Source of the DNA: Candidatus Portnoybacteria bacterium RIFCSPLOWO2_01_FULL_43_11
GTDB lineage: Bacteria > Patescibacteriota > Minisyncoccia > Portnoybacterales > UBA2143
Reading direction: 5' to 3'
NCBI GenBank assembly: GCA_001819605.1
Contig: MHNE01000017.1
Coordinates: 10 to 64,009, forward strand
DNA length: 64,000 nucleotides
Positions within the stretch are counted from its first letter, which is position 1. Each line of letters opens with the position of its first letter. The position numbers and the translations under genes are program-made. Positions 1 to 35,473 of the stretch are shown here, one piece after another. The notes under the pieces are model-generated. The model searched no databases and was not told where the DNA came from. It worked only from the letters and a program-made list of their open reading frames with translations.

Positions 1-983
1 ATTTTTCTAAAATTCCCGGCTTGGGATTTAAAAAAGAAAATCAGGTTATTCTTACTTCTTTTCGGGATTTAATTCCGGATATTAATATTTTGCCTATCCC
101 CTCCTATGAACTTTTTAACATTAAAAAATACTGGGGGCCTTATACTTCAAGAACGCCGTTTATGATTATGACAAGGTCAAGGGGCTGTCCGTTTCTCTGC
201 ACTTTCTGCGGGGTAACCAAAATGTTCGGCCGAAGATACCGGGTCCAGACGCCTCAAAGAAGCATCAAAGAGGTTGATTATTTGGTCAATCAGCTGGGCA
301 TCAAAGAAATCGGTTTTAAAGACAGCGAGTTTACTCTTGACCCCAGAAATGTTGAAGAGTTCTGCGATCTCCTTATAGAAAGAAATTATGATCTGACTTG
401 GAACTGCAACGGCCGAGTTAATCATGTCACTCCTTCTCTTTTAGCTAAAATGAAGCGAGCCGGCTGTTATTCCATCACCTACGGCATTGAATCGGGCGAC
501 CAAAAAATCTTGGACAATATCAAAAAACAAATTACTCTTCCGCAAATTAGAGAAACAATGAAAATGACCCGCGAAGCCGGCCTTCAGGTTATCGGCAATT
601 TTATGATCGGAAATCCGGGCGATACGAGAAAAACAATTAAAAAAACAATTGATTTTGCCAAAGAATTAAAGCTGGATTACGCTTATTTTGGTTTTACCAC
701 TCCATTTCCGGGCACTGAATTAAGGGACGAGGCCATTAAAAACGGCTGGATTTTAGATAAAAGCATGGAAGCGGTAAAATACGAAGACTGCATAATGAAC
801 GCCACAAGTTTACCGACTCAAGAATTAAAAACTTATCTCAATAAAGCCTACCGCTCTTTTTATTTCAGACCTTCTTATATTTTTAAAAGATTAAAAAAAC
901 TAAGCAGAAACGAAATGTATAATTCCGTGAGGGGCGCCTGGGCCATATTCAAAGACGGCTTAAGGGTAAAATTTAATTCTTAA
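1..983 (+). CDS. B12-binding-domain radical SAM protein, C-terminal part (the 5' end lies outside the window)
   Basis: The frame is open from nt 3 (FSKIPGLGFKKENQ...), and this aligns with the mid-protein ILGLVFKKDGQ segment of the paralog at 990..2408. It has the cluster motif RSRGCPFLCTFCG and the C-terminal tail YRSFYFRPSY shared with the paralogs. Confidence 0.8.
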   Translation, partial: FSKIPGLGFKKENQVILTSFRDLIPDINILPIPSYELFNIKKYWGPYTSRTPFMIMTRSRGCPFLCTFCGVTKMFGRRYRVQTPQRSIKEVDYLVNQLGIKEIGFKDSEFTLDPRNVEEFCDLLIERNYDLTWNCNGRVNHVTPSLLAKMKRAGCYSITYGIESGDQKILDNIKKQITLPQIRETMKMTREAGLQVIGNFMIGNPGDTRKTIKKTIDFAKELKLDYAYFGFTTPFPGTELRDEAIKNGWILDKSMEAVKYEDCIMNATSLPTQELKTYLNKAYRSFYFRPSYIFKRLKKLSRNEMYNSVRGAWAIFKDGLRVKFNS

Positions 984-989
984 ACTTTT

Positions 990-2408
990 ATGAGAATACT
1001 GCTTATCAACCCAAGTCTTCATCAAGCCACCACCGGCCAATACAAAGAAGATGTGGAAAAAGGACGAGGCGTTTATCCCCCCTTGGGATTGGCTTATATC
1101 GCCGCGGTTCTTCTAAAAAACAATCATCAGGTAAAAATGATTGATTACGATATTGAAGGAAGCGAAGCGGAAATTAAAATTGAAAATACCTGCCGCGATT
1201 TTAAGCCGCAAATAGTCGGTTTTTACGCGATGACCTGGTCATACGGACAGGCAAAACGACTGGCGAAAAAAATCAAAGAAATTGACAGAAATATCATAGC
1301 CCTTATCGGCGGGCCAAACGCAACTTGCTTGCCCGAGCCAACTCTTGAATTCGGGGATTTTGATTTTGGCATTTTAGGCGAAGGGGAAGAAACGATAATT
1401 GAATTAATTGAAAAACTGGAAGGAAAAAACAACTTAGAATTTGAAAAAATTTTAGGACTGGTTTTTAAAAAAGACGGACAGATTATCATTAATCCGCCCC
1501 GGCCCTTGATAAAAGATTTAAACGCAATTCCTTTTCCGGCCAGACATCTTTTGCCCATTAAAAAATATTTTGATGTTTTTTCCCGCGAGAAACGCTTTGC
1601 CACGATTATTGCCACCCGCGGCTGTCCTTTCAACTGCGTTTTTTGCGACAGAAAAAATAGAATGGGCCGGACCTGGCGCATGAGGTCGCCCGAAAATATT
1701 GAACAAGAAATTAAAGAAGTGATTGACCAATACGGCATCAGGGAATTTATGTTTTTTGACGATAATTTTATTATTGATAAAGAATGGGCCTACGAGGTCT
1801 GCGAGCGGCTTAAAAAATTAAACATTATCTGGGAATGCCGGGAAAGAGTTGATATGGTGGACGAACCAATTTTAAGGGCTATGAAGAGCGCCGGCTGCTA
1901 CCGGATTAGATTTGGTTTTGAATCCGGTGATAACCGAATTCTTAACGTTTTAAAAAAAGGAATCACCGTTGAACAATCCTTAAAGTGCGCCCAAATTTGT
2001 AAAAAAATCGGTCTGGAAATTTATGGATACTTCATGATTGGCGCGCCCGAAGAAACGCCTCAAACCATAGAAAGAACAATTAATTTAGCTTTAAAAATTG
2101 AGCCGAGCTTTGCTATTTTCAGTAAAACCATCCTGATTCCCGGGAGTGAACTTTTTGAATACGGAGTCTCAACCGGCCAAATTGACAAAGACTATTGGCC
2201 GCGATTCCTTTTGGGTCGGGAAACCAACGGCGCCCCTTCTCTGTCAAGCGAATTATTGCCGGAAAAATTGGTTGACCAATATGTGAAAAAAGCGGACAGA
2301 AAATTCTATTTCCGATTAAAATTTATATTTAAAAAAATCTTGGAAGTTAAAAGCTTCAAGCATCTTATCAGCCAAGCAAGAATCGGGTTTGCTTTATTAT
2401 TTAAATAA
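990..2408 (+). CDS. B12-binding-domain radical SAM protein
   Basis: N-terminal Rossmann-like part (MRILLINPS..., IGGPNATCLP, GEGEETIIELI) followed by ATRGCPFNCVFCD (CxxxCxxC). The gene starts 7 nt after the upstream gene. Confidence 0.85.
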   Translation: MRILLINPSLHQATTGQYKEDVEKGRGVYPPLGLAYIAAVLLKNNHQVKMIDYDIEGSEAEIKIENTCRDFKPQIVGFYAMTWSYGQAKRLAKKIKEIDRNIIALIGGPNATCLPEPTLEFGDFDFGILGEGEETIIELIEKLEGKNNLEFEKILGLVFKKDGQIIINPPRPLIKDLNAIPFPARHLLPIKKYFDVFSREKRFATIIATRGCPFNCVFCDRKNRMGRTWRMRSPENIEQEIKEVIDQYGIREFMFFDDNFIIDKEWAYEVCERLKKLNIIWECRERVDMVDEPILRAMKSAGCYRIRFGFESGDNRILNVLKKGITVEQSLKCAQICKKIGLEIYGYFMIGAPEETPQTIERTINLALKIEPSFAIFSKTILIPGSELFEYGVSTGQIDKDYWPRFLLGRETNGAPSLSSELLPEKLVDQYVKKADRKFYFRLKFIFKKILEVKSFKHLISQARIGFALLFK

Positions 2409-2414: not shown

Positions 2415-3374
2415 ATGAAATTTCTCGGTAAAATATTCAGCCGCTGGTATATCATTATTGGTTTTCTAATTTTCTTTTATATTGTTTTTTATAAAATTGA
2501 CGTTTCAAAAGTTTTAGAAACGCTTTCAAAAACCAATCTGTATTTAGTCGGCTTGGTAATTCTCCTTGTCTTTTCAATGTCTCTGGTTCAACCGGCCAGA
2601 TGGAACTATCTTAAAAAAGTCCAAAATATCAATTATCGGCTTAAAGATTCTTTTTTGATTTATAACGCCGGCTTTTTTTTCTCCGCTATTACGCCAGGCC
2701 ATCTTGGGGACCTGATTAAAATATTCTACTTAAAAAAAGACGGCCATTCAGTGGGCAAATCGCTCGTAAGCGTTCTTTTAGACCGCGCCTCTGACATATT
2801 ATTTCTCCTCTTGGTCGGTTATGTAAGTATGTATTTTTTTGCCCAATTTTTCCTAAAATACATCATAACCATAACCATCGTCGGGCTTTCTGTTTTATTG
2901 TTTATTTTTATCTTTCAAAGGAAGAAATTTTTAAAAATCGCCTTCCAAAAAATTATTCTTTCAATAATCCCGGTTAAATATCAAAAATCATGGCATCTGA
3001 ATTACCATGATTTTGTTATTAGTATCGCAATTTATAAATTTAAAAATTACTTTATTCTTTCGCTGGTTACCATTTTTAACTGGTTTATCTACTATCTAAG
3101 TGTGTTCTTATTGGCGAAAAGCATCGGCTTGGACAATATTCCTTTTATATTTTTAGCTATGTCAATCACTTTAGCCACTTTAGCCACGCTTATCCCGATT
3201 TCAATTTTCGGTCTTGGCACAAGAGACGCCTCTCTTCTTTTCTTTTTCTCTTTTTTTGGCGTCAGCCCGGAACAAACCATAAGTTTTTCAACTCTGTATT
3301 TATTGATGCTTTTAATCACCGCCTCCATCGGATTCATTTGCTGGCTTAAAAAACCGTTGAGGTTTAGATCTTGA
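2415..3374 (+). CDS. Polytopic membrane protein, flippase-like (LPG_synthase_TM / UPF0104-like)
   Basis: About 8 predicted TM helices. It carries the ARWNYL...ITPGHLGDLIKIFYLKK motif typical of PF03706-type proteins. It is a paralog of 22378..23319. Confidence 0.6.
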   Translation: MKFLGKIFSRWYIIIGFLIFFYIVFYKIDVSKVLETLSKTNLYLVGLVILLVFSMSLVQPARWNYLKKVQNINYRLKDSFLIYNAGFFFSAITPGHLGDLIKIFYLKKDGHSVGKSLVSVLLDRASDILFLLLVGYVSMYFFAQFFLKYIITITIVGLSVLLFIFIFQRKKFLKIAFQKIILSIIPVKYQKSWHLNYHDFVISIAIYKFKNYFILSLVTIFNWFIYYLSVFLLAKSIGLDNIPFIFLAMSITLATLATLIPISIFGLGTRDASLLFFFSFFGVSPEQTISFSTLYLLMLLITASIGFICWLKKPLRFRS

Positions 3375-4430
3375 AATTATTTTTTTTGCCAATAGTGGCC
3401 ACATTGAAAAATTATTAACAATACTGTTCTGAATCGCGTTCTCAAAAGTGCAGACGCAATTTTTATCTTTGATAAACTTAAAAATTTCTTTGGTCTTGTC
3501 TTGAGACAAGATTTTTTTAATATCATAATCAAAATCCCTTAGACTTCCGAATTCAAAATTCAGCATCTCGCACGGCTTCACCAAACCGGTTTCGGAAATA
3601 ATAATCATCTTTCTGCCGGCGGAACAGGGATAAAATCGCTTTCTGCCTCTTAAAACCTGATAAATTATATCGCGGGCCGCTAATTTATTGCCCGCGATTA
3701 TTCCTGAAAATGTAAAACCTGAACTGAAATTCCTTTCTTCTTTATCAACCAACTCCCTGACCTCGCGATAATCCGATGCTCTGATGTTTTTACTCTCCTT
3801 CTCACGAGTGTCGCCCCTGGCCCAACAGAAATCAAAAACCGCTTCAGGCATTTCGCTCCTAACAAAATCCATCACTTGTTTGACTTTTTTGTAATTAAAA
3901 GCCGAAACGGTCATATTGATCATTATTTCAAAATCCTTAACTTGTTTTTTCAGCTTAGCCAAATTTTTGTAATTCGCCCTTACTTTTTCAAAAGCGCCCG
4001 GCACCCCCCTGATTTCGTCGTGGTCTTTACCCACTCCGTCAAGAGAAAGACATAATTTTAAATACGGGTTTCTGGTTGTTTTTAAAATTTCCTCAACTGT
4101 TTCCTTTATTTTCTCTGTCATTAAAGAATTTGTCGGAATACTCAAAAATTGAACCTGATTATTTTTATCAAAAATGCGGGCAATAGCCGGCAAGTCGTTT
4201 CTAATACTCGGCTCGCCGCCGGTTAAAGTCGCATACTCTAAAAATCCAAAAGATTTAGAAATTCTTTCTATTTCCCCCAAAGACAATTCATTTGCTCTGT
4301 CGACCTTATCAATATTCTTCCAATAAAAACACATTTTACAGCGGGCGTTACAGCCGGCCGTGACATATAAAATTATGTAAGTCGGAGTTTTAGAAAACAA
4401 ATTTCTAAAACTACGCAGATATTTATTCAT
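3312..4430 (-). CDS. Radical SAM protein with Cys-rich (SPASM/twitch-like) C-terminus
   Basis: N-terminal YVTAGCNARCKMCFYW (CxxxCxxC) and a GGEP motif (LTGGEPSIRND). C-terminal Cys pattern YPCSAG...KPCEM...NCVCTFENA. It is a paralog of 29831..30919. Confidence 0.75.
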   Translation of the reverse strand: MNKYLRSFRNLFSKTPTYIILYVTAGCNARCKMCFYWKNIDKVDRANELSLGEIERISKSFGFLEYATLTGGEPSIRNDLPAIARIFDKNNQVQFLSIPTNSLMTEKIKETVEEILKTTRNPYLKLCLSLDGVGKDHDEIRGVPGAFEKVRANYKNLAKLKKQVKDFEIMINMTVSAFNYKKVKQVMDFVRSEMPEAVFDFCWARGDTREKESKNIRASDYREVRELVDKEERNFSSGFTFSGIIAGNKLAARDIIYQVLRGRKRFYPCSAGRKMIIISETGLVKPCEMLNFEFGSLRDFDYDIKKILSQDKTKEIFKFIKDKNCVCTFENAIQNSIVNNFSMWPLLAKKIISRSKPQRFFKPANESDGGGD

Positions 4431-4438: not shown

Positions 4439-5950
4439 TCAAGCGCTTTGACGCTTAAGTAAAATCTCAAAGGGCAGAATAAAAAATTTATGCTTTAATC
4501 TGAAAGTCACCCATTGGTTAATTAAAGCATAAATTCCCAAATATTTTAGAATTTTATTTTTAAGCCGGTATTGTCTCATAGCCAGAAATTCTTTACTGGT
4601 GATTCTTTTAAACATAAACAAAATCCTTAAAAGCATTACCAAACGATACTGCTCATCAGTTACCCACGGCGTTACCCGTTCTGATAAATCAATTCTCCCC
4701 CACGATTCTAAATCTTTTGGCTCTTTAAAACCTCGTTGAACGCTCTCTTTATATAATTCAGTGCCGTAATAAGGAGTGTAAAAAAACAAAAATACCCGCG
4801 CCAAAGGATTCGTTTCATAAATTTTACTGGCCAGATCAACAGTCGCGCTTAATTCTTTTCTCCATGATTTTTCATAATCAGCCGCGTTATCGGTTAAAGG
4901 CGGAAAACCGGTCATAAAAGACTCAATCAGCTGAATATCATATTTTTTAGCCAAGGCCTCGCATTTAACCAGATCTTCCACGGTTGAACGTTTATTAATC
5001 AGGTTGAGCATATCCTGATCACCGGATTCTGCTCCAATTAAAAGCTCCCTAAACCCGGCTTTTTTCATTAATCGCCAAGTTTCCGGACTGTATTTGTTTA
5101 CTTGTTCGGCTCTGGCGTTGGCCCAAATAATGCCGATTTTTATGTTTCTTTCTAAAAGCCCTTCACAGATTTTTTTAACCCGTTGTTCGTCCACGCAAAA
5201 ATTAGAATCCCTTAAATCAACAGCGTCAATATTATATTCTTTAACAAGATTTTCAATCTCGTTAATCACCCGCTCGGCCGAATAGCTATCCCAGCGGCTC
5301 TTAAAAGACGAATTACTCACATAACAAAAACGGCAGTTAAAAGGACACCCCTGACTAGTTATGTAAGACAAAGTGCGTTTATCTCCGTAGTCGGTTTTTT
5401 TCAGATATTTTTCTATATTCCAAAGCAGATGATAAGGTAGAGCGGGAAATTTCTCCAATTTCTCAAGCGGCCGCTCGGGGTTATTGATGATTTGGTCATC
5501 TTTTTTATAAGTCAATCCCAAAATATCGCCAAACGGTTCTTTCTTGTCCAGCCGATGAACCAGTTCGGTAAAGGTAATCTCGCCCTGACCTTTAACTATA
5601 ATATCAACCAAGGGATGTTTTATGGTTTGTACCGGTAAGATTGTCGGATGAATGCCGCCCCAGATAATCGGCACAGTTTTATTTTTCCGGCGGACCAAAT
5701 CGGCAAACCGCAATCCGTCGGTTATCTGGTACCCGGTCATTGCCGTGATTCCAACACAAATCGCCTTATCTAAATGATTTAGAGCTTTCAAATAATATTC
5801 TTCGTCATAAGAATGGAATATTTTTATATCATAACCTTCTGAATCTAAGTAGCTGGAGATAGCCAAAAGACCCATCGGCGCGATTCGGCGTCCTTTGGGC
5901 GTCGGTTGGGGAGAAAATAATAAGATAAACTTGTCTTTATATTCAAGCAT
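4439..5950 (-). CDS. B12-binding-domain radical SAM protein
   Basis: WGGIHPTILP, GQGEITFTELV, TSQGCPFNCRFCY. Confidence 0.85.
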   Translation of the reverse strand: MLEYKDKFILLFSPQPTPKGRRIAPMGLLAISSYLDSEGYDIKIFHSYDEEYYLKALNHLDKAICVGITAMTGYQITDGLRFADLVRRKNKTVPIIWGGIHPTILPVQTIKHPLVDIIVKGQGEITFTELVHRLDKKEPFGDILGLTYKKDDQIINNPERPLEKLEKFPALPYHLLWNIEKYLKKTDYGDKRTLSYITSQGCPFNCRFCYVSNSSFKSRWDSYSAERVINEIENLVKEYNIDAVDLRDSNFCVDEQRVKKICEGLLERNIKIGIIWANARAEQVNKYSPETWRLMKKAGFRELLIGAESGDQDMLNLINKRSTVEDLVKCEALAKKYDIQLIESFMTGFPPLTDNAADYEKSWRKELSATVDLASKIYETNPLARVFLFFYTPYYGTELYKESVQRGFKEPKDLESWGRIDLSERVTPWVTDEQYRLVMLLRILFMFKRITSKEFLAMRQYRLKNKILKYLGIYALINQWVTFRLKHKFFILPFEILLKRQSA

Positions 5951-5964: not shown

Positions 5965-6930
5965 TTATTTTTTAAACATATAACCGAGAACGGAAAGACC
6001 GGCTCCCAAAGCGGTTAAAAAACAAAATAATAAATCCAAAAAAACAAAAGAAGGAATTAAATAAACTTTTTTTTCTTTAAATAGAAAAACATAAAAGCCG
6101 AAACTATAAAAAACATAAATAAAGAAAATCAAAATGAGAAAATAAAAAACTAAAGGAGCGAAAAACGATAAAATAAAAAGAGGTAAAACTAAGGCCCCAA
6201 TTAGAGTTTTAACTCCTCTCTCTTTAGTTGAATAAACCGGATCAAATTTTTTTCTTTTTAAAAACAATCTAATCCACTGCCAGCTTCGTTTTAAAGTCTT
6301 TTTAATTGATTGCTTAAAAGTTTCAAAGTGATGAAGGACTTTAATTTCTCGGGTAATGTAGATCTTAAAGCCGGCTTTATTCAAACGATAGCCGAATTCA
6401 AAATCCTCAACATCGGCTTTTTTATATTTTTCGTCAAAATATCCAACTCTTTCAAAAATATTTTTTTTAACGGCTGATCGCTCGGTGGTAAAAGAGCTCT
6501 GAAATTCGCCCGGCTGATTCCACAAATAATATTTATAATAGGCCCAAAAAAGCGGGGTTAAGCCATCATTTAATGGGGTTTTATCTTTAATCATAATCAC
6601 GCCGTCAATTTCCGGTTTTTTCTTAAAAACCTCCGCTAATCTTTTTAGGGCATAATTACCTTTAAAAGCCACGTCAGAATCAATAAAAATAACGATCTCG
6701 CCTTTAGCTTCTTTAATGCCTCTGTTTCTGGCCGCGGCCGGGCCGGAGTTTCTTTCTAATAATACCTGACGAACTTTATATTGTCCAACTATCTGCTCTG
6801 TCTTATCTATTGAACAATCATTAATCACAATCACCTCAAAATCAGAAAAGTCTTGCTTCATTACGGAATCTAAACATTTTTTAATTGTTTTTTCGGCGTT
6901 GTAAGCCGGAATAATAATGCTGAATAACAT
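5965..6930 (-). CDS. Family 2 glycosyltransferase with C-terminal TM helices
   Basis: FSIIIPAYNAEKTI..., VIVINDCSIDKT, and FIDSDV (DxD). The C-terminal part is hydrophobic. Confidence 0.85.
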   Translation of the reverse strand: MLFSIIIPAYNAEKTIKKCLDSVMKQDFSDFEVIVINDCSIDKTEQIVGQYKVRQVLLERNSGPAAARNRGIKEAKGEIVIFIDSDVAFKGNYALKRLAEVFKKKPEIDGVIMIKDKTPLNDGLTPLFWAYYKYYLWNQPGEFQSSFTTERSAVKKNIFERVGYFDEKYKKADVEDFEFGYRLNKAGFKIYITREIKVLHHFETFKQSIKKTLKRSWQWIRLFLKRKKFDPVYSTKERGVKTLIGALVLPLFILSFFAPLVFYFLILIFFIYVFYSFGFYVFLFKEKKVYLIPSFVFLDLLFCFLTALGAGLSVLGYMFKK

Positions 6931-8650: not shown

Positions 8651-8654
8651 AAAA

Positions 8655-11682: not shown

Positions 11683-11684
11683 CT

Positions 11685-13436: not shown

Positions 13437-13452
13437 AAATCTATATTATTTT

Positions 13453-13683
13453 TTAAAATTGCCGCTCAAAATTAGATTCATCTTTCTTTTTTTCTCTTAA
13501 AACCCAGTAAGAGTCTTGAAACGGCTTTGAAGAAAAAAAACTAATTATTTTTTTTATTGAAAAAACAAATCCGATAATTAAAAAATAAAAAATGCTTAAA
13601 ATAATATGGGTATTAAATCTGCCGATTAGATTGGCGAATTTTTTCCAGCCCCGCCAGATTTTTTTAAGAATTTGTCCAACCAT
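13453..13683 (-). CDS. Small membrane protein (76 aa) upstream of the carbamoyltransferase
   Basis: Basic N-terminus, one or two hydrophobic helices (HIILSIFYFLIIGFVFSI), and a tight operon position. No family assigned. Confidence 0.4.
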   Translation of the reverse strand: MVGQILKKIWRGWKKFANLIGRFNTHIILSIFYFLIIGFVFSIKKIISFFSSKPFQDSYWVLREKKKDESNFERQF

Positions 13684-27737: not shown

Positions 27738-28845
27738 TATTTTGGCCGGGCCTTGAAATACCCTTAATTATTATTGCCTCGTAGGGACAAACCTCAAAAC
27801 ATTTTAAACAGCGGATATAAGCGCATTTTTTAAAATCAAGGCCGGTCTCTTTCTTAATGGCCCCAACCGGACATATGTCCAAACAATCTCGGCAGGCGGG
27901 AAAAGAATGACATTTTTTAATGTCTAATTTCGGTCTCATGCCAAAACGTCTGTGCCACCAAGCGATTGATGTTTTTTTTGTAATTTTTTCCTGAAGATAA
28001 TCAAAAAAATAAACCAGCCAATAAAGTAAATTATAAAATCTGTTTTTAGGCAGAACAACTGAAAGATCTTCGGTTTTTGTCTGTCTTTTTTGGTCTTCCG
28101 GAATAAGACCTCGCTTTTTGGCTATTTTTAAATGACCGATTTCTAAGGGATTGATATTTAAAAATTGAGCGGCAGAAAAATCAACGGCAAAAACATTAAG
28201 GCCGGCTAATAAATAGCCCAGTTTAATTCTGTCGCCAAAGGCCGGACCCTTGCCGTGCATGATCACCGAAGCGTCCACAATGGTCAAGTGAGTCGGGATG
28301 ATTAAATTTAATTCAACAATGCTTCTGGCTAATCCGAAAAGATGCATTTTCCTTCTTTCCTTTAAAGGTAGAAGACCTATTAAATTCTTGAGCCCGCAGG
28401 AAAAGCCGGTCAGCATATGGGTTTTTAATTTGGGAACATTGATGATTTTATGAACCTCTTTTAAAATCTCTGGCAATTCTATTTTTTTAAAAATCGGGCT
28501 TGGCGTTTTTTTGAAAAAAGTTTTTGAGCGACGCAAGTCTATAAACTGAATATCGTGTTTTCTAACGAGTTTATCAATGCCTAAAATGGAGAAAACCCGC
28601 GAGTCAAATTCATAACCGACTCCCTCGGCCAAAATCGGAATAGCTTTGTTTTCTTTAATGATTTCAATTAAAGCGGATATTAAATCCAAATCGGTTGTGG
28701 CGCCGGTCGCGGCTTCGCGCGGCAACACTAAATTGGGTTTAATCAAAATCTTCTCGCCGGAAACGATTTTAAAATTTAGAGCTGAAAAAATTTCGCGGAC
28801 ATTTTCTTTATAGTCTTTTATTTTAACAATTTTAACTCCGCTCAT
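27730..28845 (-). CDS. DUF362-domain protein fused to a 2x[4Fe-4S] ferredoxin-like C-terminus
   Basis: DUF362-like ILIKPNLVLP and GLKNLIGLLP. C-terminal Cys clusters CRDCLDICPVGAI and CLKCFEVCPYEAI. Confidence 0.7.
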   Translation of the reverse strand: MSGVKIVKIKDYKENVREIFSALNFKIVSGEKILIKPNLVLPREAATGATTDLDLISALIEIIKENKAIPILAEGVGYEFDSRVFSILGIDKLVRKHDIQFIDLRRSKTFFKKTPSPIFKKIELPEILKEVHKIINVPKLKTHMLTGFSCGLKNLIGLLPLKERRKMHLFGLARSIVELNLIIPTHLTIVDASVIMHGKGPAFGDRIKLGYLLAGLNVFAVDFSAAQFLNINPLEIGHLKIAKKRGLIPEDQKRQTKTEDLSVVLPKNRFYNLLYWLVYFFDYLQEKITKKTSIAWWHRRFGMRPKLDIKKCHSFPACRDCLDICPVGAIKKETGLDFKKCAYIRCLKCFEVCPYEAIIIKGISRPGQNNG

Positions 28846-29834
28846 TTTAAAAACCCTTTTCTTCTTTGCGCCTCAATCGTCAACCTAACGCCCTCGTTAA
28901 AAGCAAACTTCGGCTGATAAGCAAGTTCTTTTTGGGCTTTGACGATAGAAGAAGCGCGGCTGTCAATAAAAAATCTTAAACGGCTTTTGGTAAGAATCGG
29001 GTCAAAGCGAAAAATTTTAGACAAAAAAACAAGCGGGTATAAAACTAAAAAAGCGAACCAAACCGGAATTTTTAATTTTGGCAATTTTACATTGAGACCT
29101 TTGGCGATAATTTCTAAAAAATCTTTCAACTTTATCGTTTCTTTCCCACAAATATTATAACTCTGGCCAATAGCGCGAGAATTGTTTAAAACTGATAAAA
29201 AACCAGAAATTAAATCGTCAATGTAAACCGGATGAATAATATTTTCGCCCCGGCCGATTAAAAAGAATTTTTTATTCTGAACTGCCTTAAAAATATCCAA
29301 GACATGGAGATCACCGGGCCCATAGACAAGCCCCGGCCTTATAATGGTGGCCGGAAAGCCATTTTTAATAAATTCAAGCACTAATTTTTCGGCCTCGGAT
29401 TTGGTTTTTTCGTAAATGTTAGTCGGACTATGAGTATAGCTTTCGGTAAAAAATTCTCCCCTAAAAGGGCCGAAAACGCCAATGGTGCTTGTAAAAATAA
29501 ATTGCTTGAAATCGGGAATGCCCAAAGAGACTTCCAAAAGATTTTTTGTGCTTAAAACATGAGTCCTGTAATAAACCTCGTTTGACAAGCCGAATTTGCC
29601 CAATTGGCCGGCCAAATGAAAAATTACTTTAATCCCGGAAACAGCTTTGATTAAGGAATCTTTATCTTCCAAACTTCCTTCTGTTATTTCTAAACTGCTG
29701 TCCTTTAAATCTTTTAATCTGTCCAATCGGCTGAACTCCCTGACTAAAACTCTAACCTCGTGACCGGCCGCGATTAAAACCCTGACTAAATGAGAGCCGA
29801 TAAAACCGCTGGCGCCGGTGACTAATATTTTCAT
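28842..29834 (-). CDS. NAD-dependent nucleotide-sugar epimerase/dehydratase (extended SDR)
   Basis: MKILVTGASGFIGSHLV (GxxGxxG) and YEKTK (YxxxK). Confidence 0.85.
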   Translation of the reverse strand: MKILVTGASGFIGSHLVRVLIAAGHEVRVLVREFSRLDRLKDLKDSSLEITEGSLEDKDSLIKAVSGIKVIFHLAGQLGKFGLSNEVYYRTHVLSTKNLLEVSLGIPDFKQFIFTSTIGVFGPFRGEFFTESYTHSPTNIYEKTKSEAEKLVLEFIKNGFPATIIRPGLVYGPGDLHVLDIFKAVQNKKFFLIGRGENIIHPVYIDDLISGFLSVLNNSRAIGQSYNICGKETIKLKDFLEIIAKGLNVKLPKLKIPVWFAFLVLYPLVFLSKIFRFDPILTKSRLRFFIDSRASSIVKAQKELAYQPKFAFNEGVRLTIEAQRRKGFLK

Positions 29835-30919
29835 AGATTAGTTAACAACCTTAAACCCACTTTTAATAAAGTTGGCAGATGGCAAAGCATGTTGGTATAA
29901 GAAGCGTTAGCTAAAGGACAAAAACATTTTCTCTCCTTAATCGCCTTTCTTATACTTTTTGCTCTTTGACTTTGCCAAATCTTATTAAAATCGTAATTGG
30001 CCCGCCTTAGATCCCCCATTGATTCGCCTTTAATACAGCAGGCCCAAACATAGCCGTCCGGCGTAATCTGGACTGAAGTTATCGCCGCAAAACAAGGCAG
30101 GGCTCTTTTTTTATTTAACAGAATTTTTTTAACTAAATTATAATATTCTATTCTAAAGGCCTGAATAACTCTGTCCAAGCCGGAAAATTTTTCTTTTTTG
30201 ATTTCCGAAATCAGAAAATCTACGACTCTGATGTAATCGGCTGTTAAGGGACTTATCATGGAACCGAGAGTGTTAAGCTCCACTCTTTCTTCGGCGATTT
30301 CGGTGATAAACGGCGGCGAACCCAACTCATCTCTTATGTAGCGATAAATTTGAGGGATTTCTTTAACATTAAATTTAGAAATTACCGTATGGATTTTAAA
30401 ATCCAAATTTTTATTCCCGGCTTTTAAAGACCTTAGAGCGTTATAAGTCTTTAGGGCTTTATCAAAATTACCCGGAATCCCCCTGATTTTGTCGTGCAAA
30501 GGCCCAAAGCCGTCCAAGGACAAATTAACAACAATATCTGTTTTTGGGAGAGATTTTAAAATTTCTTCCACTCTTTTGGGGATAATTTCTGACAATAAAC
30601 CGTTGGTCGGAATAATAATCGCTTTTGGCTTGAGGTATTTGTCTATAAGTCCGCAGATTGAAACGATTTCTTTTTTTAAAAACGGTTCGCCGCCGGTTAA
30701 AATTATTTCATAAGGGAAGCGGCCGATGCTTTTAAAAATTTTTTTGTGTTCGTCCAAGTTGAGCTCCCTAACCGGTGTTTTTCTCCAAATGTTACAGGTT
30801 TGACAGCGGGAGTTGCAGTTATAAGTTAAACCTAAAGTGATATTAAAAGGCCCTATTTTTGGCCAGCCGAAATAATAAAAAAGATTGTAAAAAAAAATCT
30901 TGGGTATTAAATTAATCAT
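29831..30919 (-). CDS. Radical SAM protein with Cys-rich (SPASM/twitch-like) C-terminus, paralog of 3312..4430
   Basis: LTYNCNSRCQTCNIW, LTGGEPFLKKE, and C-terminal LPCFAA...WACCIKG...KCFCPLANA. Confidence 0.75.
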   Translation of the reverse strand: MINLIPKIFFYNLFYYFGWPKIGPFNITLGLTYNCNSRCQTCNIWRKTPVRELNLDEHKKIFKSIGRFPYEIILTGGEPFLKKEIVSICGLIDKYLKPKAIIIPTNGLLSEIIPKRVEEILKSLPKTDIVVNLSLDGFGPLHDKIRGIPGNFDKALKTYNALRSLKAGNKNLDFKIHTVISKFNVKEIPQIYRYIRDELGSPPFITEIAEERVELNTLGSMISPLTADYIRVVDFLISEIKKEKFSGLDRVIQAFRIEYYNLVKKILLNKKRALPCFAAITSVQITPDGYVWACCIKGESMGDLRRANYDFNKIWQSQRAKSIRKAIKERKCFCPLANASYTNMLCHLPTLLKVGLRLLTNL

Positions 30920-31811
30920 TTTTTAATTTTTTGCTTCCTTCTATGTAATCCCAGTCTAATTTTATTTTTCCTCTTTTTAAATCTCTTTTGGCCAAAAAAA
31001 CGGCGTACTGCTCGCAAAAAGCGACAATTAAAGTATAAATTATTTTAAGCGGCGTATAATCCATATGTCTTAGAACGGCCGGAATGACAAGTAAAGGATT
31101 CGTGGTTGAGACATGGTGGCCGGTTAATTTCTGAAGCTCCAAATGCCCCAAACGGATGCGCCGGCGCTGTCTAATCAAGTATTTGAAACTGGTCGGGTGC
31201 ATAATATTAACAACAGCGTGCGGCTCATAATAAATTTTATAACCCTGACTAAAAATTGTGTGCCCAATATATAAATCATCTTGAATAATGGCCGGTATCT
31301 TGTCAACCAATCCTTTTTTAATAGCGTAAAGATAGCCGGATAAGTGGCAAAAATTTTCTTTTTTCGTGCCTTCCCAAGCCGCGTGGTCAAAAAGCCGGAA
31401 GCGAAAATCCGCAATATAGCCCCAGAAAGTGTCTTTTTGATTTAAAGGAATGGTTTTTCCGCAGACCGCGCCCACCTTCGGTTTATCAAAATCAGGCAGA
31501 AGATAATCTATGGCCTTATCCCTTAACAAGCAGTCTGCGTCGGTCATCACTAAAATTTCCGACTGATTATTGGCTAAAATTAAATTTACGGCCGAGTATT
31601 TTCCTTTCCTTTCCGGCTCAATAATTAATCTAATTCTTTTATTTTTTTGAACCCAGTTATTGACAATCTCGTTCGTTTTGTCAATAGAGCCGGAGGAAAC
31701 AATAATAACCTCGTCTAAATAATGCTTTGTCTTATGGGTTAAAATATTTTCCAATAAATAGCCGATATTTCGCTCCTCATTATAGGCGCAAATACCCACT
31801 GAAAAATTCAT
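30912..31811 (-). CDS. Family 2 glycosyltransferase
   Basis: FSVGICAYNEERNI, IIVSSGSIDKT, MTDADC (DxD). Confidence 0.8.
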   Translation of the reverse strand: MNFSVGICAYNEERNIGYLLENILTHKTKHYLDEVIIVSSGSIDKTNEIVNNWVQKNKRIRLIIEPERKGKYSAVNLILANNQSEILVMTDADCLLRDKAIDYLLPDFDKPKVGAVCGKTIPLNQKDTFWGYIADFRFRLFDHAAWEGTKKENFCHLSGYLYAIKKGLVDKIPAIIQDDLYIGHTIFSQGYKIYYEPHAVVNIMHPTSFKYLIRQRRRIRLGHLELQKLTGHHVSTTNPLLVIPAVLRHMDYTPLKIIYTLIVAFCEQYAVFLAKRDLKRGKIKLDWDYIEGSKKLKND

Positions 31812-31930: not shown

Positions 31931-33328
31931 CTAAAGAATACTTTGTTTCTCCTTTATGAGATATTTATTATAGAGCCAGTAAAGCCCATAAAAGAAAAAA
32001 AGAAAAAGAAACGGCTGAAATGGCAGGCGCAAACGGGCCAAAGCGGCCCAACTGGAAGCAAAAACAAAATAGCCGATAATTAAAAGCATTACTAAGGAAA
32101 TTTTTAAAAGCTCCTTTCTTAAAAACATAAAAATTATTCCTAAAAAAGCGATAAAGTCAATAAAAAGCCAGAAGCCCACGCCGATTATTCTTATCAGAAA
32201 AATCCGGTTATCTTTCATAGCTGAAGCCAAAGCCGAAAAATCCCGCTGAATAATTAAATTAGAAATATTAACTTTCTGGGCTTTATCTGCTTTAATATGC
32301 CAAAAAACCAAGATTTCCATCCAGCCGGAATCGGTTAAAACCGGGATTGATTTAATCAAATGCCATTTAAAATAACCCGAAAGATCGGCTTTTATGAGCG
32401 ATTGGGTTATTTCCTTTAAAACCGGTATGTATTTATCCTTCATTAAAATCTGGTTAAAATTTTCTACGCCGGCTTTTTCAATCGCCAAATTTTGAAGATA
32501 ATTGTCAGCTTCTATTTCTGACATTCCTTGGCTTAAAATCAAAAAATCGCGCGCCGCGGTTAAAAAATACAAATAATTAGGAAGAGTGGAAATCGCATAA
32601 TCGTTAAACTGAATTTTGTTTCTAACGCTCCAGGACGAAATAACGGCTAAAAAAACGATTAAATAAACGAGTAAAAATTTAACCAATTTTGGCTGGGTAA
32701 TTTTTGGCCAACTCATAATGACCGAACTTATAAAAATAACCGGATAAAAATATGTAACAATGGGTCTTATTAAAGCGGCTAAACCCAATAAAACCGCGGA
32801 GTAGATAATGAATTTCCATTTTTCTTCTTTCCAGAATAAAGCTAAAAAATATAAAGAGAGCATAAAAAACAGCAAAAACGGCGTCTCTGACATTACTACA
32901 TTGGGCCAAAGAATACTAAATGGTTCAAGCGCCGTAAAAATAGCGGCGGCAAAAGAAATAAAATCATTAAAAAATAATCGGCTGAATTTATAAATATAAA
33001 CAATAAATATGGAAAACATTATATTCTGCCAAAAAACAACAAAGACATACTTAGGAATAATCAGCCAGGAAACAGCCAATAAAACCGGGTAGCCCGGCGC
33101 CGGAAAAGAATGAGGCGTCAGGGGAAAATTAGACTCGCCGGTAAAAACGCCGTGGAGCAGTAAATTCAGACCCGCGTCTAAATAGCCGTCCTGGCCTTCC
33201 CTAAAACTATAATCGCCCTGAATAAAATACGAAGCCAGCATAAAAATTAAGCGCGGAATAAAAGCGATAAGAAAAATAATTATAATTTTTCTGTTGTTTT
33301 TTAACCAAGTTTTAATTTTTTCCATCAT
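31931..33328 (-). CDS. GT-C-fold membrane glycosyltransferase (PMT_2/ArnT-like)
   Basis: 465 aa, about 12 TM helices, and an N-terminal pattern typical of GT39/GT83-like proteins. It has a 4-bp overlap with the upstream radical SAM gene. Confidence 0.55.
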   Translation of the reverse strand: MMEKIKTWLKNNRKIIIIFLIAFIPRLIFMLASYFIQGDYSFREGQDGYLDAGLNLLLHGVFTGESNFPLTPHSFPAPGYPVLLAVSWLIIPKYVFVVFWQNIMFSIFIVYIYKFSRLFFNDFISFAAAIFTALEPFSILWPNVVMSETPFLLFFMLSLYFLALFWKEEKWKFIIYSAVLLGLAALIRPIVTYFYPVIFISSVIMSWPKITQPKLVKFLLVYLIVFLAVISSWSVRNKIQFNDYAISTLPNYLYFLTAARDFLILSQGMSEIEADNYLQNLAIEKAGVENFNQILMKDKYIPVLKEITQSLIKADLSGYFKWHLIKSIPVLTDSGWMEILVFWHIKADKAQKVNISNLIIQRDFSALASAMKDNRIFLIRIIGVGFWLFIDFIAFLGIIFMFLRKELLKISLVMLLIIGYFVFASSWAALARLRLPFQPFLFLFFFYGLYWLYNKYLIKEKQSIL

Positions 33329-34758
33329 TTTTTATATAAATCAAAAATAAATTTTGTCCCGATTTTTATCAGATTTAAAAATTGTCTCGGGGTTTTGGCC
33401 AGTTTTAAAATCCGCCAGAAAATTATCGGTCTTTTATAAAATTTTCCATAGGCCGAAGCGACCATCTTTGAAACTAATTCTTCGCTCAACTCCCCGGTCT
33501 TCAAACTATATTCATTCTGGCTGACTCGGGAAAAATCTTCTTCTCTTAGCCAATACCTCTCTCTGGCTTCTATAAAAAGCAAAGAGCCGGGAAACGGGGT
33601 AGCCATATAAAAATGAGCGAAAGTTAAGGGAAGTTTAAGAGCCAAATCAATGGTTTCTTTCATTGTTTCTTTATTTTCACCCGGAAAACCAAGGATAAAA
33701 TGCCCGTCAACTGCCAAACCGGCCTCGGAAGCAAGATTGGCCGCTGTTTGGGCTTGAGCAACCGTGGCCTCTCCACCTTTATTGGCTAATTTTAAAATCT
33801 GGTCGCTTCCAAATTCAATTCCAAAAATAATCTGCCAACAGCCGCTCTTTCTCATTTTTTGAAAAATTTCCAAATCAACAAAATCAACCCGGCTGTTTGA
33901 AACCCACCTGATTTTTTTATTTAAACCCTCTTCAATGATTTTATCAAGCACGGAAAATAAATATTTTCTGTCAACCGTGGCTGATTCGGTCCAGAATAAA
34001 AAATCGTAAATACCCCTATCCATATTCTCTTCTATCTCGTCAATGATTTTTTCCGGACTTCTCTGACGAATCTTTTTGCCGTAATAAGCCGCGGCGCTGC
34101 AAAACCGGCAGTTATACGGACAGCCCCGAGAGAAAACAATCAAATTAAAAGGCCGGCCGATAATCGGCATTAAGTAATCTTTAAAATCAACCCCGGACCA
34201 GTCCGGCTTTTCTAAATCATCCAAGTTTTCTATAAAGGGACGCTGGTTATTGATAATAATTTTATCTCTCTCGCGAAAGCCCAACCCTAAAATATCTGAA
34301 AGTTTCGGCTCGTTGGTTTTTAAATGATTAACCAGCTCCCGGCCAATGATTTCCGGCTCGCCTGAAATAACAAAATCTAGAGAGGGAAATCGCTCTAAAG
34401 TTTCCTTTGGCAAGGCGGTTATGTGAATGCCCAGAGCGGCAATTTTTATTTGAGGCATCTCATTTTTTACGGCCCGGGCAAACCAACCCAAGTCAGAATC
34501 AATAGTCGGCGTGGCCACGGTTAAAAAAATAATATCCGGATTAAAACTCCTTATTTTTTCCAATACTTTTTCTAATTTAAGTTTTTTCGGCGCGCAATCT
34601 AAAGTTTCTATTTGGGCCATATCCTTAATCTGACCGGCTGTCATAGCCAAACTCAAAGGCGGAAAAGGCGCTCCCCAAATATCAAACTGCTGGCACCGGC
34701 CTTCTCTAATCCATGTCTCATTTTTAGGAGTTGGCGGATTAATAAATAAAACTTTCAT
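33325..34758 (-). CDS. B12-binding-domain radical SAM protein
   Basis: MKVLFINPP, LGIHITALP, SGEPEIIGRELV, FSRGCPYNCRFCSA, and a YGKFYKRP tail. Confidence 0.85.
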   Translation of the reverse strand: MKVLFINPPTPKNETWIREGRCQQFDIWGAPFPPLSLAMTAGQIKDMAQIETLDCAPKKLKLEKVLEKIRSFNPDIIFLTVATPTIDSDLGWFARAVKNEMPQIKIAALGIHITALPKETLERFPSLDFVISGEPEIIGRELVNHLKTNEPKLSDILGLGFRERDKIIINNQRPFIENLDDLEKPDWSGVDFKDYLMPIIGRPFNLIVFSRGCPYNCRFCSAAAYYGKKIRQRSPEKIIDEIEENMDRGIYDFLFWTESATVDRKYLFSVLDKIIEEGLNKKIRWVSNSRVDFVDLEIFQKMRKSGCWQIIFGIEFGSDQILKLANKGGEATVAQAQTAANLASEAGLAVDGHFILGFPGENKETMKETIDLALKLPLTFAHFYMATPFPGSLLFIEARERYWLREEDFSRVSQNEYSLKTGELSEELVSKMVASAYGKFYKRPIIFWRILKLAKTPRQFLNLIKIGTKFIFDLYKK

Positions 34759-34792
34759 TTTTTAAAAATATGTAGCCCCGTTTAATATCAAT

Positions 34793-35473
34793 TTATTTTG
34801 TCCAAGGCCAGTATAAAGAAACAATAAAATGCCAGATAAATTTAAAACCCTGGCTGGTCTTGAGTTTTGACCGCCCGCCTTTTCGGCTAAATTCATGGCT
34901 GACCGCTTCTTTTACTCTATAACCTTTTTTTAAAGCGTTAAAAACCATTTCCTGCTCAATAACAAAATCATTTCTTTTTAAATTTAAATCTAAAAAAACA
35001 GATTTTTTTATAGCCCGAAAACCATTCTCAATATCGGTTAGATTGGTTTTCCATTTTTTATTGACAAAAACCACCAAAAGATTACTGCCGGTATTTCTGA
35101 TAAAATTATCCCAAGTGCCGTGGAGCTCCTCGCTTCCGCCAAGCATCCTTGAAGCCACGACCAAATCCGCCTGTTCCTCAATAATCGGCTGAACCAATTT
35201 GGGAATATCAGCCGGCTCATGAGAGCCGTCCGCGTCAATAAAAACAATTATGTCTCCCTTTGCCTCTTTAACGCCGCATTTATAGCCGTCTCCCTTACTT
35301 ATCTTATTATCAAGAATTACTTTAGCGCCAAGTTCTTGGGCTATTTCGCGAGTTCTGTCAGTTGAATGCCCGTCAACCACCAAAACTTCGTCGCCGTAAT
35401 TTTTAGCTTTAGCAATAACTTCCCCGATAGTTTCCTCCTCATTTTTCGCCGGTATAATAATTGAAATTTTCAT
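34793..35473 (-). CDS. Family 2 glycosyltransferase (soluble, DPM/GPG-synthase-like size)
   Basis: MKISIIIPAKNEEETI, VVDGHSTDRT, FIDADGSHEP. Confidence 0.85.
   Translation of the reverse strand: MKISIIIPAKNEEETIGEVIAKAKNYGDEVLVVDGHSTDRTREIAQELGAKVILDNKISKGDGYKCGVKEAKGDIIVFIDADGSHEPADIPKLVQPIIEEQADLVVASRMLGGSEELHGTWDNFIRNTGSNLLVVFVNKKWKTNLTDIENGFRAIKKSVFLDLNLKRNDFVIEQEMVFNALKKGYRVKEAVSHEFSRKGGRSKLKTSQGFKFIWHFIVSLYWPWTK

Follow-up and report, generated by a model that had tools for sequence, protein, structure and literature searches.

A radical SAM-rich surface-glycan locus of Candidatus Portnoybacteria with a possible role in the tailoring of lipid-linked sugars

Introduction

Class-B radical S-adenosylmethionine (SAM) enzymes are among the largest enzyme groups of unknown function, and a locus where they crowd among glycosylation genes raises the question of what they act upon. 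Such a locus lies in a stretch of 64,000 nucleotides (the window, to which all positions refer) of contig MHNE01000017.1 from Candidatus Portnoybacteria bacterium RIFCSPLOWO2_01_FULL_43_11. An earlier note, made from the sequence alone, had described at 1-35473 eight paralogs with a B12-binding domain (here B1 to B8) and two SPASM-like paralogs (S1 and S2) amid glycosyltransferase (GT) and flippase genes, and had proposed one envelope product that is repeatedly radical-modified. We analysed the locus and its relatives in other genomes, and found it to be a mosaic of small cassettes that recur across phyla and domains. Their composition leads us to favour, tentatively and without going so far as to call it probable, a model in which lipid-linked sugars, once made by a GT2 synthase, are radical-tailored before a flippase or a transferase of the GT-C type takes them over.

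The radical SAM proteins of the locus

All ten radical SAM open reading frames (ORFs) were present where they had been reported:

3-983, plus strand: B1, class-B radical SAM protein, C-terminal 326 amino acids (aa), cut by the window edge (PF04055 90 bits)
990-2408, plus strand: B2, class-B radical SAM protein (PF02310 76.5 bits, PF04055 90.1 bits)
3312-4430, minus strand: S1, radical SAM protein with a putative twitch/partial-SPASM tail (PF04055 61 bits, SPASM 16.7 bits)
4439-5950, minus strand: B3, class-B radical SAM protein (PF02310 51.6 bits, PF04055 65.2 bits)
15048-16529, minus strand: B4, class-B radical SAM protein (PF02310 56.8 bits, PF04055 63.1 bits)
18292-19734, minus strand: B5, class-B radical SAM protein (PF02310 and PF04055)
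19742-21265, minus strand: B6, class-B radical SAM protein (PF02310 and PF04055)
23329-24729, minus strand: B7, class-B radical SAM protein, structure modelled (PF02310 and PF04055)
29831-30919, minus strand: S2, radical SAM/SPASM protein of a family of about 358 aa (PF04055; PF13186 33.1 bits)
33325-34758, minus strand: B8, class-B radical SAM protein (PF02310 43.1 bits, PF04055 91.9 bits)

PF04055 scored 57-92 bits in all ten (gathering cut-off 29.5), and PF02310 43-76 bits in the seven full-length B proteins (cut-off 32.1). B1 is complete on two longer contigs (L093 and L094), where it measures 465 aa, carries both domains and is preceded by a GT2 resembling polyprenyl-phosphate (polyprenyl-P)-sugar synthases, which confirms the two-domain architecture proposed for the eight class-B ORFs. 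The motifs reported earlier were not all as uniform as described: CxxxCxxC is found in 10 of 10 proteins, but GGxHxT/S as such in five of the eight B proteins (GGPNAT in B2, GGHQAT in B7, LGIHIT in B8) and GEGE in six (GQGE in B3, GEPE in B8). The three Cys of the cluster are kept in 155/155 sampled family members, and the motifs conserved across this sample are G-x-T/S-x-x-T after strand 3, GGxHxT/S, GEGE and (T)SRGCPxxCxxC.

The SPASM label held for S2, which lies above the PF13186 cut-off of 21.5 bits, but not for S1, which lies below it. Both proteins keep the first SPASM half-motif (C..GxxxxC) and then CxC only, and the alignment of the S2 family has five conserved C-terminal Cys, C..GxxxxC(C) plus CxC, compared with seven in a full SPASM domain. 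Since five rather than seven are conserved, one auxiliary cluster of twitch-like kind is suggested, and "twitch/partial SPASM" would be the more exact name. BlsE (cytosylglucuronate decarboxylase) and BtrN similarly join a radical SAM core to a Cys-poor SPASM/twitch tail, and BlsE is the best solved relative of S2, the radical SAM core alone being aligned (E about 5e-6). Unlike BlsE, S2 belongs to a highly conserved family of its own, whose partners are a GT2 and an HpnA-like short-chain dehydrogenase/reductase (SDR).

None of the radical SAM proteins of the window has transmembrane (TM) helices. Averaged over 155 sequences, the last 45 residues of the B family have a net charge of +7.5, while the body of the protein has one of about 0 per 45 residues. 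These tails are rich in Phe, Leu, Ile and Tyr, and their net charge in the window paralogs is +4 to +10 (that of B7 is encoded at 23329-23463). The N-terminus of the S2 family is hydrophobic and conserved. To judge from these sequence features, the B tails and the S2 N-terminus would fit with work at the membrane surface.

Radical SAM genes make up 10 of the 28 genes and about 38% of the DNA of positions 1-35473. In a typical genome they account for roughly 1% of genes, and their density here is far above any genomic background. Overlaps of the kind noted earlier were found (4 bp at 16526, 26448, 28842, 29831 and 33325; 8 bp at 24722, 27730 and 30912), and they join radical SAM genes to GT, flippase and GT-C genes in an operon. 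From 35473 down to 3312 the minus-strand genes are separated by such overlaps or by less than 35 bp, save for three gaps of 64, 119 and 283 bp. The only large gap, between the Wzx and carbamoyltransferase genes (13437-13719), holds on the minus strand an ORF of 76 aa with one hydrophobic helix (13453-13683), which is called as a gene on metagenome contig L002.

Proteins identical to those of the window are public as "hypothetical protein" in metagenome-assembled genomes (MAGs) of Candidatus Portnoybacteria from the Rifle aquifer, and the host is thus, as had been supposed, a reduced-genome organism of the Candidate Phyla Radiation (CPR, or Patescibacteria). One bin holding identical proteins is named "candidate division WWE3" while others are named Candidatus Portnoybacteria, the same contig standing in differently named genomes.

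Eight genes of one architecture in one locus might suggest that most paralogs are redundant or decaying duplicates without distinct function, a view that we find hardly credible. All are full length with intact cluster motifs, and they share only 24-39% identity with each other (32% between S1 and S2). In a distance analysis of the B paralogs together with 147 B-type proteins of other loci, every B paralog but the B3/B5 pair had its nearest relative outside the window, and seven of the eight were closer to a protein of another genome than to any in the window. B7 has relatives at 71% identity in a related CPR contig (L011), at 53% in Thermodesulfobacteriota and another at 51%, and L011 also carries relatives of B5 (62%) and B4 (56%). 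The nearest relative of B6 (43%) is in a Pacearchaeota genome of the same aquifer (L018), and that of B8 (41%) in Gottesmanbacteria (L070), where it is flanked by GT2_c-like genes. The pairwise identities and the nearest-neighbour analysis rule out a recent duplication in situ. Moreover, B4, B5 and B7 have orthologs (56-71% identity) that retain the architecture, and many metagenome assemblies carry the locus in identical form (it stands unchanged on more than 20 contigs of several metagenomes). The paralogs are therefore intact and diverged, not decaying. The B7-like family at large comprises about 16,000 representatives of 50%-identity clusters (E<=1e-30).

Cobalamin and the nearest solved structures

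The description of the B proteins as B12-binding was upheld in part. An AlphaFold2 (AF2) model of B7 (predicted local distance difference test, pLDDT, 89) was searched with Foldseek and gave AprD4 as best fold (TM-score 0.75), followed by TsrM, QCMT/MgmA, OxsB, TokK and CysS (0.62-0.73). AprD4 is a sugar diol dehydratase without bound cobalamin (PMC12931638). Because the best whole-fold match binds none, the PF02310 match is not proof of cobalamin use. The domain call itself stands, and the N-terminal domain does resemble those of cobalamin enzymes: a profile built from the eight B N-terminal domains alone matched TokK (3e-14), OxsB (1.5e-12) and TsrM (1.4e-8), as well as CysS, TM0182-N, QCMT and MetH, and it did not match AprD4 at E<=1. 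AprD4, the apramycin 1,2-diol dehydratase, is also the best solved match over the whole sequence (E 1.7e-26), with similar size and a sugar substrate, but its sequence match to the B proteins spans the radical SAM half only. TokK, OxsB, TsrM, CysS and QCMT/MgmA share with the B proteins an N-terminal Rossmann domain followed by a radical SAM barrel, and TokK also the GGPH-type motif; in contrast, the B proteins are only 17-20% identical to solved class-B enzymes, measure about 470 aa without the long C-terminal domains of TokK and TsrM, and would not be expected to share their varied substrates (carbapenem, nucleoside, tryptophan, protein).

The loop after strand 3 positions a residue under the cobalt in TokK (Trp76), OxsB (Asn186) and TsrM (Arg69) (PMC13331322). 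In our alignments of the N-terminal domains this loop differs among the B paralogs: B2 has a Trp aligned with TokK Trp76, and B7 an Asn at the OxsB position. Such differences are a hint, not evidence, of varied cobalamin chemistries among the paralogs. An Rfam scan of the window detected no cobalamin riboswitch, its only match being a DUF3800-IX RNA, and no cobalamin uptake genes were found among the window ORFs with Pfam. On these alignments we consider it plausible that the B proteins bind and use cobalamin, in which case the host would depend, as the earlier note had supposed, on an external cobamide.

Neighbouring genes and extent of the locus

The neighbours of the radical SAM genes were as noted earlier, namely three GT2s, a GT4, two PF03706 proteins, a Wzx, a carbamoyltransferase, an SGNH protein, a weakly matching Methyltransf_11 protein and an SDR. 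To these we add a phosphodiesterase, a DUF362-ferredoxin protein, one GT-C of PMT_2 type and four ORFs without Pfam match (U570, U612, U584 and U429):

2415-3374, plus strand: PF03706 flippase-like membrane protein a, about seven TM helices (PF03706 153.8 bits)
5965-6930, minus strand: GT2_a, with two C-terminal TM helices (PF00535 120.5 bits; best NCBIfam match EpsD-like)
6938-10493, minus strand: U570 and U612, GT-C-like tandem paralogs with 10 TM helices each
10558-13436, minus strand: SGNH/GDSL hydrolase (PF13472) and NodU/CmcH-type O-carbamoyltransferase (PF02543 322 bits, PF16861 235 bits)
13720-15045, minus strand: Wzx-type flippase (PF13440 72.5 bits, PF01943 63.2 bits)
16526-18280, minus strand: U584, GT-C-like protein with eight TM helices, within the radical SAM array
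21237-22355, minus strand: GT4 glycosyltransferase (PF00534 140 bits)
22378-23319, minus strand: PF03706 flippase-like membrane protein b (PF03706 155 bits; TIGR00374 73 bits, cut-off 43.2)
24722-25252, minus strand: small class-I methyltransferase, overlapping B7 by 8 bp (PF08241 26.5 bits)
25255-26451, minus strand: phosphodiesterase-like protein of the alkaline phosphatase superfamily (PF01663 42 bits)
26448-27737, minus strand: U429, Pol-beta-type nucleotidyltransferase (motif GGFGRGEGS...NDYD)
27730-28845, minus strand: DUF362 protein with a C-terminal 2x[4Fe-4S] ferredoxin domain (PF04015 151 bits and Fer4 families)
28842-29834, minus strand: SDR of HpnA / 3-beta-HSD type (PF01370, PF01073; HpnA 156 bits over the full length, cut-off 368)
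30912-31811, minus strand: GT2_b, conserved partner of S2 (PF00535, PF13641)
31931-33328, minus strand: GT-C glycosyltransferase of PMT_2 type with eight TM helices (PF13231 42 bits)
34793-35473, minus strand: GT2_c, polyprenyl-P-sugar-synthase-like, first gene of the operon (PF00535 110 bits)

U570 and U612 are 51% identical and were related to the PMT_2 alignment by hhalign (probability 96.7%), as was U584 (probability 94%), which is named "Glycosyltransferase RgtA/B/C/D-like" in UniRef. The O-carbamoyltransferase gave a partial NodU match in NCBIfam. A search of 5.8 billion proteins detected only 113 homologs of U429, most of them in CPR and DPANN and a few elsewhere, and the best folds for its AF2 model (pLDDT 94.6) were aminoglycoside O-adenylyltransferases. 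Its gene is always beside or near genes for an alkaline-phosphatase-family phosphodiesterase and a B7-like radical SAM protein, the phosphodiesterase co-occurring with U429 and B7-like genes in L011, L007 and L057. U429 and the adjacent phosphodiesterase may serve for the nucleotidylation and subsequent processing of a sugar hydroxyl.

That the locus builds an envelope glycan, as had been claimed, was borne out, and it proved to be larger than described. Upstream of the window the longer contigs carry a polyprenyl-P-sugar-synthase-like GT2, DegT, an SDR, a Bac_transf phosphoglycosyl transferase and a UDP-sugar dehydrogenase, and downstream, to about 59.8 kb, there are further GT4, GT2, GT-C, DegT, GDP-mannose dehydratase and AsnB genes:

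39775-51978, minus strand: GT4, AsnB-type amidotransferase, ArnC-like GT2 (GT2_d), GT-C, DegT aminotransferase, TIM-barrel protein, GDP-mannose 4,6-dehydratase, two GT4s and a GT-C, without radical SAM genes (Pfam)
54417-59776: further GT2 (AglJ-like) and GT4 genes, end of the locus (Pfam, NCBIfam)

The radical SAM region thus forms the centre of a surface-glycan locus that exceeds 70 kb.

Cassettes shared with other genomes

Other loci were annotated by BLAST against the window proteins, with coordinates checked directly. This comparison showed the locus to be a mosaic of at least six cassettes, each of them separately conserved elsewhere:

(a) GT2_c / B8 / PMT_2
(b) GT2_b / S2 / SDR (plus DUF362)
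(c) PF03706b / B7 / methyltransferase / phosphodiesterase / U429
(d) B4 / U584 / B5 / B6
(e) GT2_a / B3 / S1
(f) upstream GT2 / B1 / B2 / PF03706a

As to cassette (a), a trio of GT-C, B and small GT2 genes is contiguous in Nanoarchaeota (L028) and Woesearchaeota (L042), and GT2 / B pairs occur in Dehalococcoidia (L021, L026, L029), Dependentiae (L039) and Gottesmanbacteria (L070). Parts of cassette (c) recur in L011, L007, Thermodesulfobacteriota (L009) and Nano-, Pace- and Woesearchaeota (L057, L038, L059). For cassette (d), a block of B / U584 / 230-aa ORF / more B genes is common to Nealsonbacteria (L051, with six B genes in 11.8 kb) and an unclassified bacterium (L061, with eight B and one S genes in 16.5 kb), so that U584 homologs stand inside radical SAM arrays there too. 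Cassette (e) is contiguous as B / GT2_a / S1 in Thermoleophilia, Gaiellales and Iainarchaeum (L037, L076, L081 and L089 carry this cassette), and as GT2_a / S1 in a Gammaproteobacteria MAG.

At E<=1e-10 the S2 family behind cassette (b) numbers 4691 homologs, and identity over bacteria and archaea is 50-55%. A GT2 gene lies directly upstream of the S2-type gene on the same strand in 29/65 loci, the GT2_b / S2 pair being found in L096-L098 and in many of L099-L178; among the S2-type loci of at least 8 kb, 21/48 carry an SDR and 11/48 a DUF362 gene. The set of GT2, radical SAM-SPASM protein of about 358 aa and HpnA-like SDR recurs at 45-55% identity in very diverse bacteria and archaea, including Methanoperedens and Altiarchaeota and many kinds of metagenome, usually without a B12-type radical SAM gene, and appears to be an uncharacterised unit of its own.

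A survey seeded with B7 relatives covered 63 species-representative loci of at least 8 kb each. Two or more B genes were found in 33 of the 63 and four or more in 12, and a GT2 lay within 3 kb of the B7-like seed in 13/31 fully flanked loci, compared with 3/31 distal control windows (p = 0.008). Comparable radical SAM arrays exist in other CPR, in DPANN, Bathyarchaeia and Chloroflexi. They are therefore widespread and not unique to this genome, the window being an extreme concatenation. Fusions among the B7 relatives, as annotated, include a protein of 2331 aa in which a SPASM-type radical SAM module is joined by four further ones, a pair of B12-radical SAM modules with a GT4-like domain between them, and class-I methyltransferase/B12-radical SAM proteins in both orders (P0404 and P0414 among P0354, P0375, P0404 and P0414); the last mirror the 8-bp overlap of the methyltransferase gene with B7.

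Near relatives of B6 and U429 were seen in DPANN (L018, L028, L038, L042, L057, L059, L081), some of them from the same aquifer, and so were the GT-C / B / GT2 trio and the set of PF03706, B, U429 and phosphodiesterase genes. This suggests that cassettes have been exchanged across domains between two groups of ultra-small episymbionts, CPR and DPANN.

Comparison with characterised families

In NCBIfam scans of the ten radical SAM proteins and 18 neighbours, none of the ten reached a curated cut-off, and no characterised pathway of this composition was found in NCBIfam or in the full-text literature searched, which agrees with the earlier note; no publication on B12 or radical SAM enzymes in CPR, DPANN or polysaccharide loci was found to describe such a locus. 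HpnJ (TIGR03471) was the top NCBIfam match for B1, B2 and B7 (232 bits for B2), but a HpnJ/hopanoid pathway was rejected, the best score (B7) being 243.9 bits against a cut-off of 577.6 and shc, hpnH, hpnG, hpnI and hpnK being absent from the approximately 50 ORFs of the window. Likewise discarded were BchE (TIGR02026; B7 best at 231.7 bits, cut-off 481), the AprD4 family (NF033070; B1 best at 131.8 bits, cut-off 500) and the P-methyltransferases PhpK / Sden_1168 (B6 227 bits against 575, B7 192 bits against 600), together with a phosphonate pathway, as no phosphoenolpyruvate (PEP) mutase family was found in any window ORF. The ladderane-type family TIGR04072, QCMT and the methylases of peptides that are ribosomally synthesised and modified post-translationally (RiPPs) all stayed below curated cut-offs. 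A mycofactocin system was also excluded: the GT2s scored 55-75 bits against MftF (cut-off 280), the methyltransferase 18.5 against MftM and S2 40 against MftC (265), and MftA, MftB, MftD and MftE were not found in the window.

Partial matches to QCMT (9CCB), ApyD and TIGR03975 were obtained, as would be expected if the radical SAM enzymes modified proteins or peptides (S-layer, pilin or RiPP-like), as QCMT, Mmp10 and RiPP C-methylases do, with the glycosylation genes merely co-located; PMT_2 enzymes can, moreover, glycosylate proteins, and at 59.8-63.6 kb there are genes for putative surface proteins that have Ig-like and dockerin domains. We consider this very improbable. The scores are all far under the family cut-offs, the partners conserved across phyla are GT2, GT-C and flippase genes, and the genes revealed neither a precursor peptide nor a leader peptidase or RiPP recognition element; the only sizeable gap of the operon holds the single-TM ORF of 76 aa.

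The same comparisons bring up membrane glycolipids. The end products might be flipped glycolipids with radical-modified head groups or tails, like calditol-glycerol dialkyl glycerol tetraether (calditol-GDGT) or bacteriohopanetetrol cyclitol ether, and not donors for a polymer. HpnJ-, HpnA- and HpnB-like similarities speak for this, as do partial matches of about 150 bits to TIGR04072 ("lipid biosynthesis B12-binding/radical SAM"), the precedent of HpnJ and Cds (PMC13459092), and PF03706, which is the flippase domain family of the lipid flippase MprF; besides, GT2 / B1 / B2 / PF03706a and B7 / PF03706b have a flippase-like gene without an adjacent GT-C. However, six GT-C-like transferases, a Wzx, a priming phosphoglycosyl transferase and many GT4s indicate the glycosylation of a polymer or protein, hopanoid and ether-lipid genes were not found in the window, and the GT-C / B / GT2 trio favours onward transfer from the lipid. 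On balance a glycolipid end product seems to us rather unlikely.

Possible tailoring of lipid-linked sugars

We tentatively hold that the tailoring of lipid-linked sugars, to which we return, accounts best for the composition of the cassettes. Four GT2s resemble polyprenyl-P-sugar synthases: GT2_c, whose best NCBIfam matches are AglJ (138 bits), PpgS and Dol-P (dolichyl-phosphate)-hexose transferase, GT2_e and the upstream GT2 with the same best matches, and GT2_d, which scored 194 bits against ArnC, its best match. All four lie below the equivalog cut-offs. GT-Cs of PMT_2 type are present, three proteins of the window being above the PMT_2 cut-off, and U584, U570 and U612 are related to them by profile comparison. 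The same reading draws on the intact motifs of the ten radical SAM proteins and the close packing of the operon, on the GT-C / B / GT2 trio shared by the window, L028 and L042, on the enrichment of GT2 genes near B7-like seeds, on the GT, methyltransferase and SPASM fusions and on the basic tails. Furthermore, the closest families and folds (HpnJ, AprD4, BlsE, HpnA) act on sugars or lipid-linked sugars, and there are precedents in HpnI/HpnJ, Cds and PtmC, for which published genetics show that the sugar is first joined to a lipid or carrier by a GT and only then met by the radical SAM enzyme (PMC13459092, PMC9092360).

Under this model a membrane-associated GT2 would first load a sugar onto a lipid carrier, most likely polyprenyl phosphate in the case of GT2_c, GT2_d, GT2_e and the upstream GT2. 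Basic amphipathic tails would then bring to the membrane one to three soluble radical SAM enzymes, which would take hydrogen from the lipid-linked sugar and rework it; C-methylation, deoxygenation, oxidation/epimerisation and ring contraction to a carbocycle are candidate reactions, and the clusters might receive their electrons from the DUF362-ferredoxin protein. Further tailoring could come from the HpnA-like SDR, the class-I methyltransferase, the nucleotidyltransferase with the phosphodiesterase, the carbamoyltransferase and the SGNH protein, after which a PF03706 flippase-like protein or Wzx might carry the product across the membrane and a GT-C (PMT_2 type, U570, U612 or U584) might hand it to a surface polymer or protein.

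Two kinds of known system offer a comparison. In HpnI/HpnJ/HpnK and Cds a GT2 loads a lipid with a hexose, whose ring the radical SAM enzyme contracts to a cyclitol (reviewed in PMC13459092 and PMC9092360). The locus resembles these systems in that B1, B2 and B7 score best against HpnJ among curated families, and the SDR against HpnA. It differs in that the scores are under half of the cut-offs (244 against 578, 156 against 368), squalene-hopene cyclase and other hpn genes are missing from the window, the carrier is probably polyprenyl phosphate with a GT-C passing the product on, and there are eight paralogs instead of one enzyme. ArnC/ArnE-F/ArnT, GtrA/GtrB/Gtr-type GT-C, CsbB/GtcA/YfhO and Rhizobium RgtA-D bring together, as the window seems to do, a small GT2 synthase, a flippase and a GT-C. 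GT2_d would correspond to ArnC and GT2_c and GT2_e to AglJ/PpgS, with U584 being RgtA-D-like, and both a GT-C (PMT_2) and a flippase (PF03706/TIGR00374, above cut-off) are at hand. Unlike those systems, the window has radical SAM genes between synthase and transferase and several systems concatenated in one operon, and its flippase candidates belong to PF03706 and are not GtrA or EmrE-like. ArnD is a precedent for the modification of a sugar while on undecaprenyl phosphate. As to Wzx/Wzy systems, Bac_transf is found upstream and Wzx in the window, where no Wzy or chain-length regulator was recognised.

Several points weigh against this model. GT2_a and GT2_b are nearer to polymer-type GT2s (EpsD, PgaC) than to polyprenyl-P-sugar synthases, and the GT2 and GT-C identities, being predicted from sequence families, are at family level only. 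The functional analogies all rely on distant similarity, given that no NCBIfam cut-off was reached. The basic C-terminal tail might bind something other than a membrane. Many B-type arrays of Bathyarchaeia are without a recognisable GT neighbour at the sensitivity used, which means that the B family is not restricted to glycan contexts. Finally, the DegT, GDP-mannose dehydratase and SDR genes in and around the locus are equally compatible with the tailoring of soluble nucleoside-diphosphate (NDP)-sugars.

This last point leads to an alternative that we judge unlikely, namely that soluble nucleotide-activated sugars are radical-tailored in the cytoplasm by C-methylation, deoxygenation or epimerisation, as in antibiotic sugar pathways, before GTs build a Wzx-dependent repeat unit. 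It would make use of the SDR, DegT, GDP-mannose dehydratase, UDP-sugar dehydrogenase and phosphoglycosyl transferase in or next to the locus, it would agree with the lack of TM helices in the radical SAM proteins, and the best solved relatives, AprD4 and BlsE, use soluble sugar derivatives. Nevertheless, the partners kept across phyla are small GT2, flippase-like and GT-C genes, not nucleotidyltransferases or NDP-sugar dehydratases, the basic and hydrophobic tails of the whole family suggest work at the membrane surface, and GT-radical SAM fusions are known.

The one repeatedly modified product of the earlier note is not the sole reading, since the locus is a mosaic of GT2 plus radical SAM (plus flippase or GT-C) cassettes, and several differently edited lipid-linked sugar donors fit at least as well. 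The component superfamilies are known and the logic would have precedents in HpnI/J, Cds and ArnC/D/T; what would be new is the systematic insertion of radical SAM enzymes into glycosylation cassettes of polyprenyl-P-sugar type, and new too is the spread of such cassettes over CPR, DPANN and other anaerobes and their stacking, eight plus two, in one operon of a reduced genome. We also put forward, with considerable doubt, that CPR, DPANN and other uncultivated anaerobes might share a horizontally exchanged, cobamide-dependent toolkit in which class-B and SPASM-type radical SAM enzymes edit sugars borne on polyprenyl phosphate and a GT-C installs carbocyclic, C-alkylated or deoxygenated sugars. 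If true, this toolkit would be a new branch of glycan biochemistry, dependent on cobamides in organisms unable to make them, and the surface building of CPR and DPANN may depend on the cobamides of their neighbours.

The locus and its relatives give thousands of class-B enzymes a concrete genomic context (GT2, radical SAM, flippase or GT-C), in three-gene cassettes small enough for heterologous-expression tests. They also suggest that CPR and DPANN episymbionts devote a large share of a reduced genome to chemically unusual surface sugars, and that modules are exchanged across the divide between bacteria and archaea. Sugars that are C-modified or carbocyclic would withstand glycosidases and phage depolymerases, and the two restriction-modification islands in the locus (see below) are consistent with strong phage pressure.

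Other features of the window

The downstream glycan stretch is interrupted by a DUF3800 gene (35692-36318, minus strand) and by two restriction-modification systems (36954-39764 and 52032-53675). The latter occupy the two lowest-GC (guanine plus cytosine) stretches of the window (0.30, compared with about 0.35) and look like inserted islands; one is a fused enzyme of 936 aa of Eco57I/MmeI type, and the other consists of an EcoO109I-family endonuclease and an N4/N6 methylase. The DUF3800-IX RNA motif (Rfam RF02968; 35612-35684, plus strand; 52.5 bits against a gathering score of 36.8) is placed in the spacer of 218 nucleotides from the start of GT2_c (35473) to the stop of the DUF3800 gene, and both genes lie on the other strand. 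The window yielded no tRNA genes, and promoter and terminator scans of 1-37000 gave counts not above those of shuffled controls.

Towards the end of the locus two divergent GT4 genes (57376-58659, minus strand, TTG start; 58583-59776, plus strand) overlap as listed by 77 bp at their 5' ends, and the minus-strand gene probably has its true start at a site further downstream. Just past the locus, at 59769-63557, the GC content rises to 0.42, and the ORFs of this stretch code for putative surface proteins bearing bacterial Ig-like (Big_13, Big_6) and dockerin domains, which are possible acceptors, or possibly just neighbours, of the glycan machinery.

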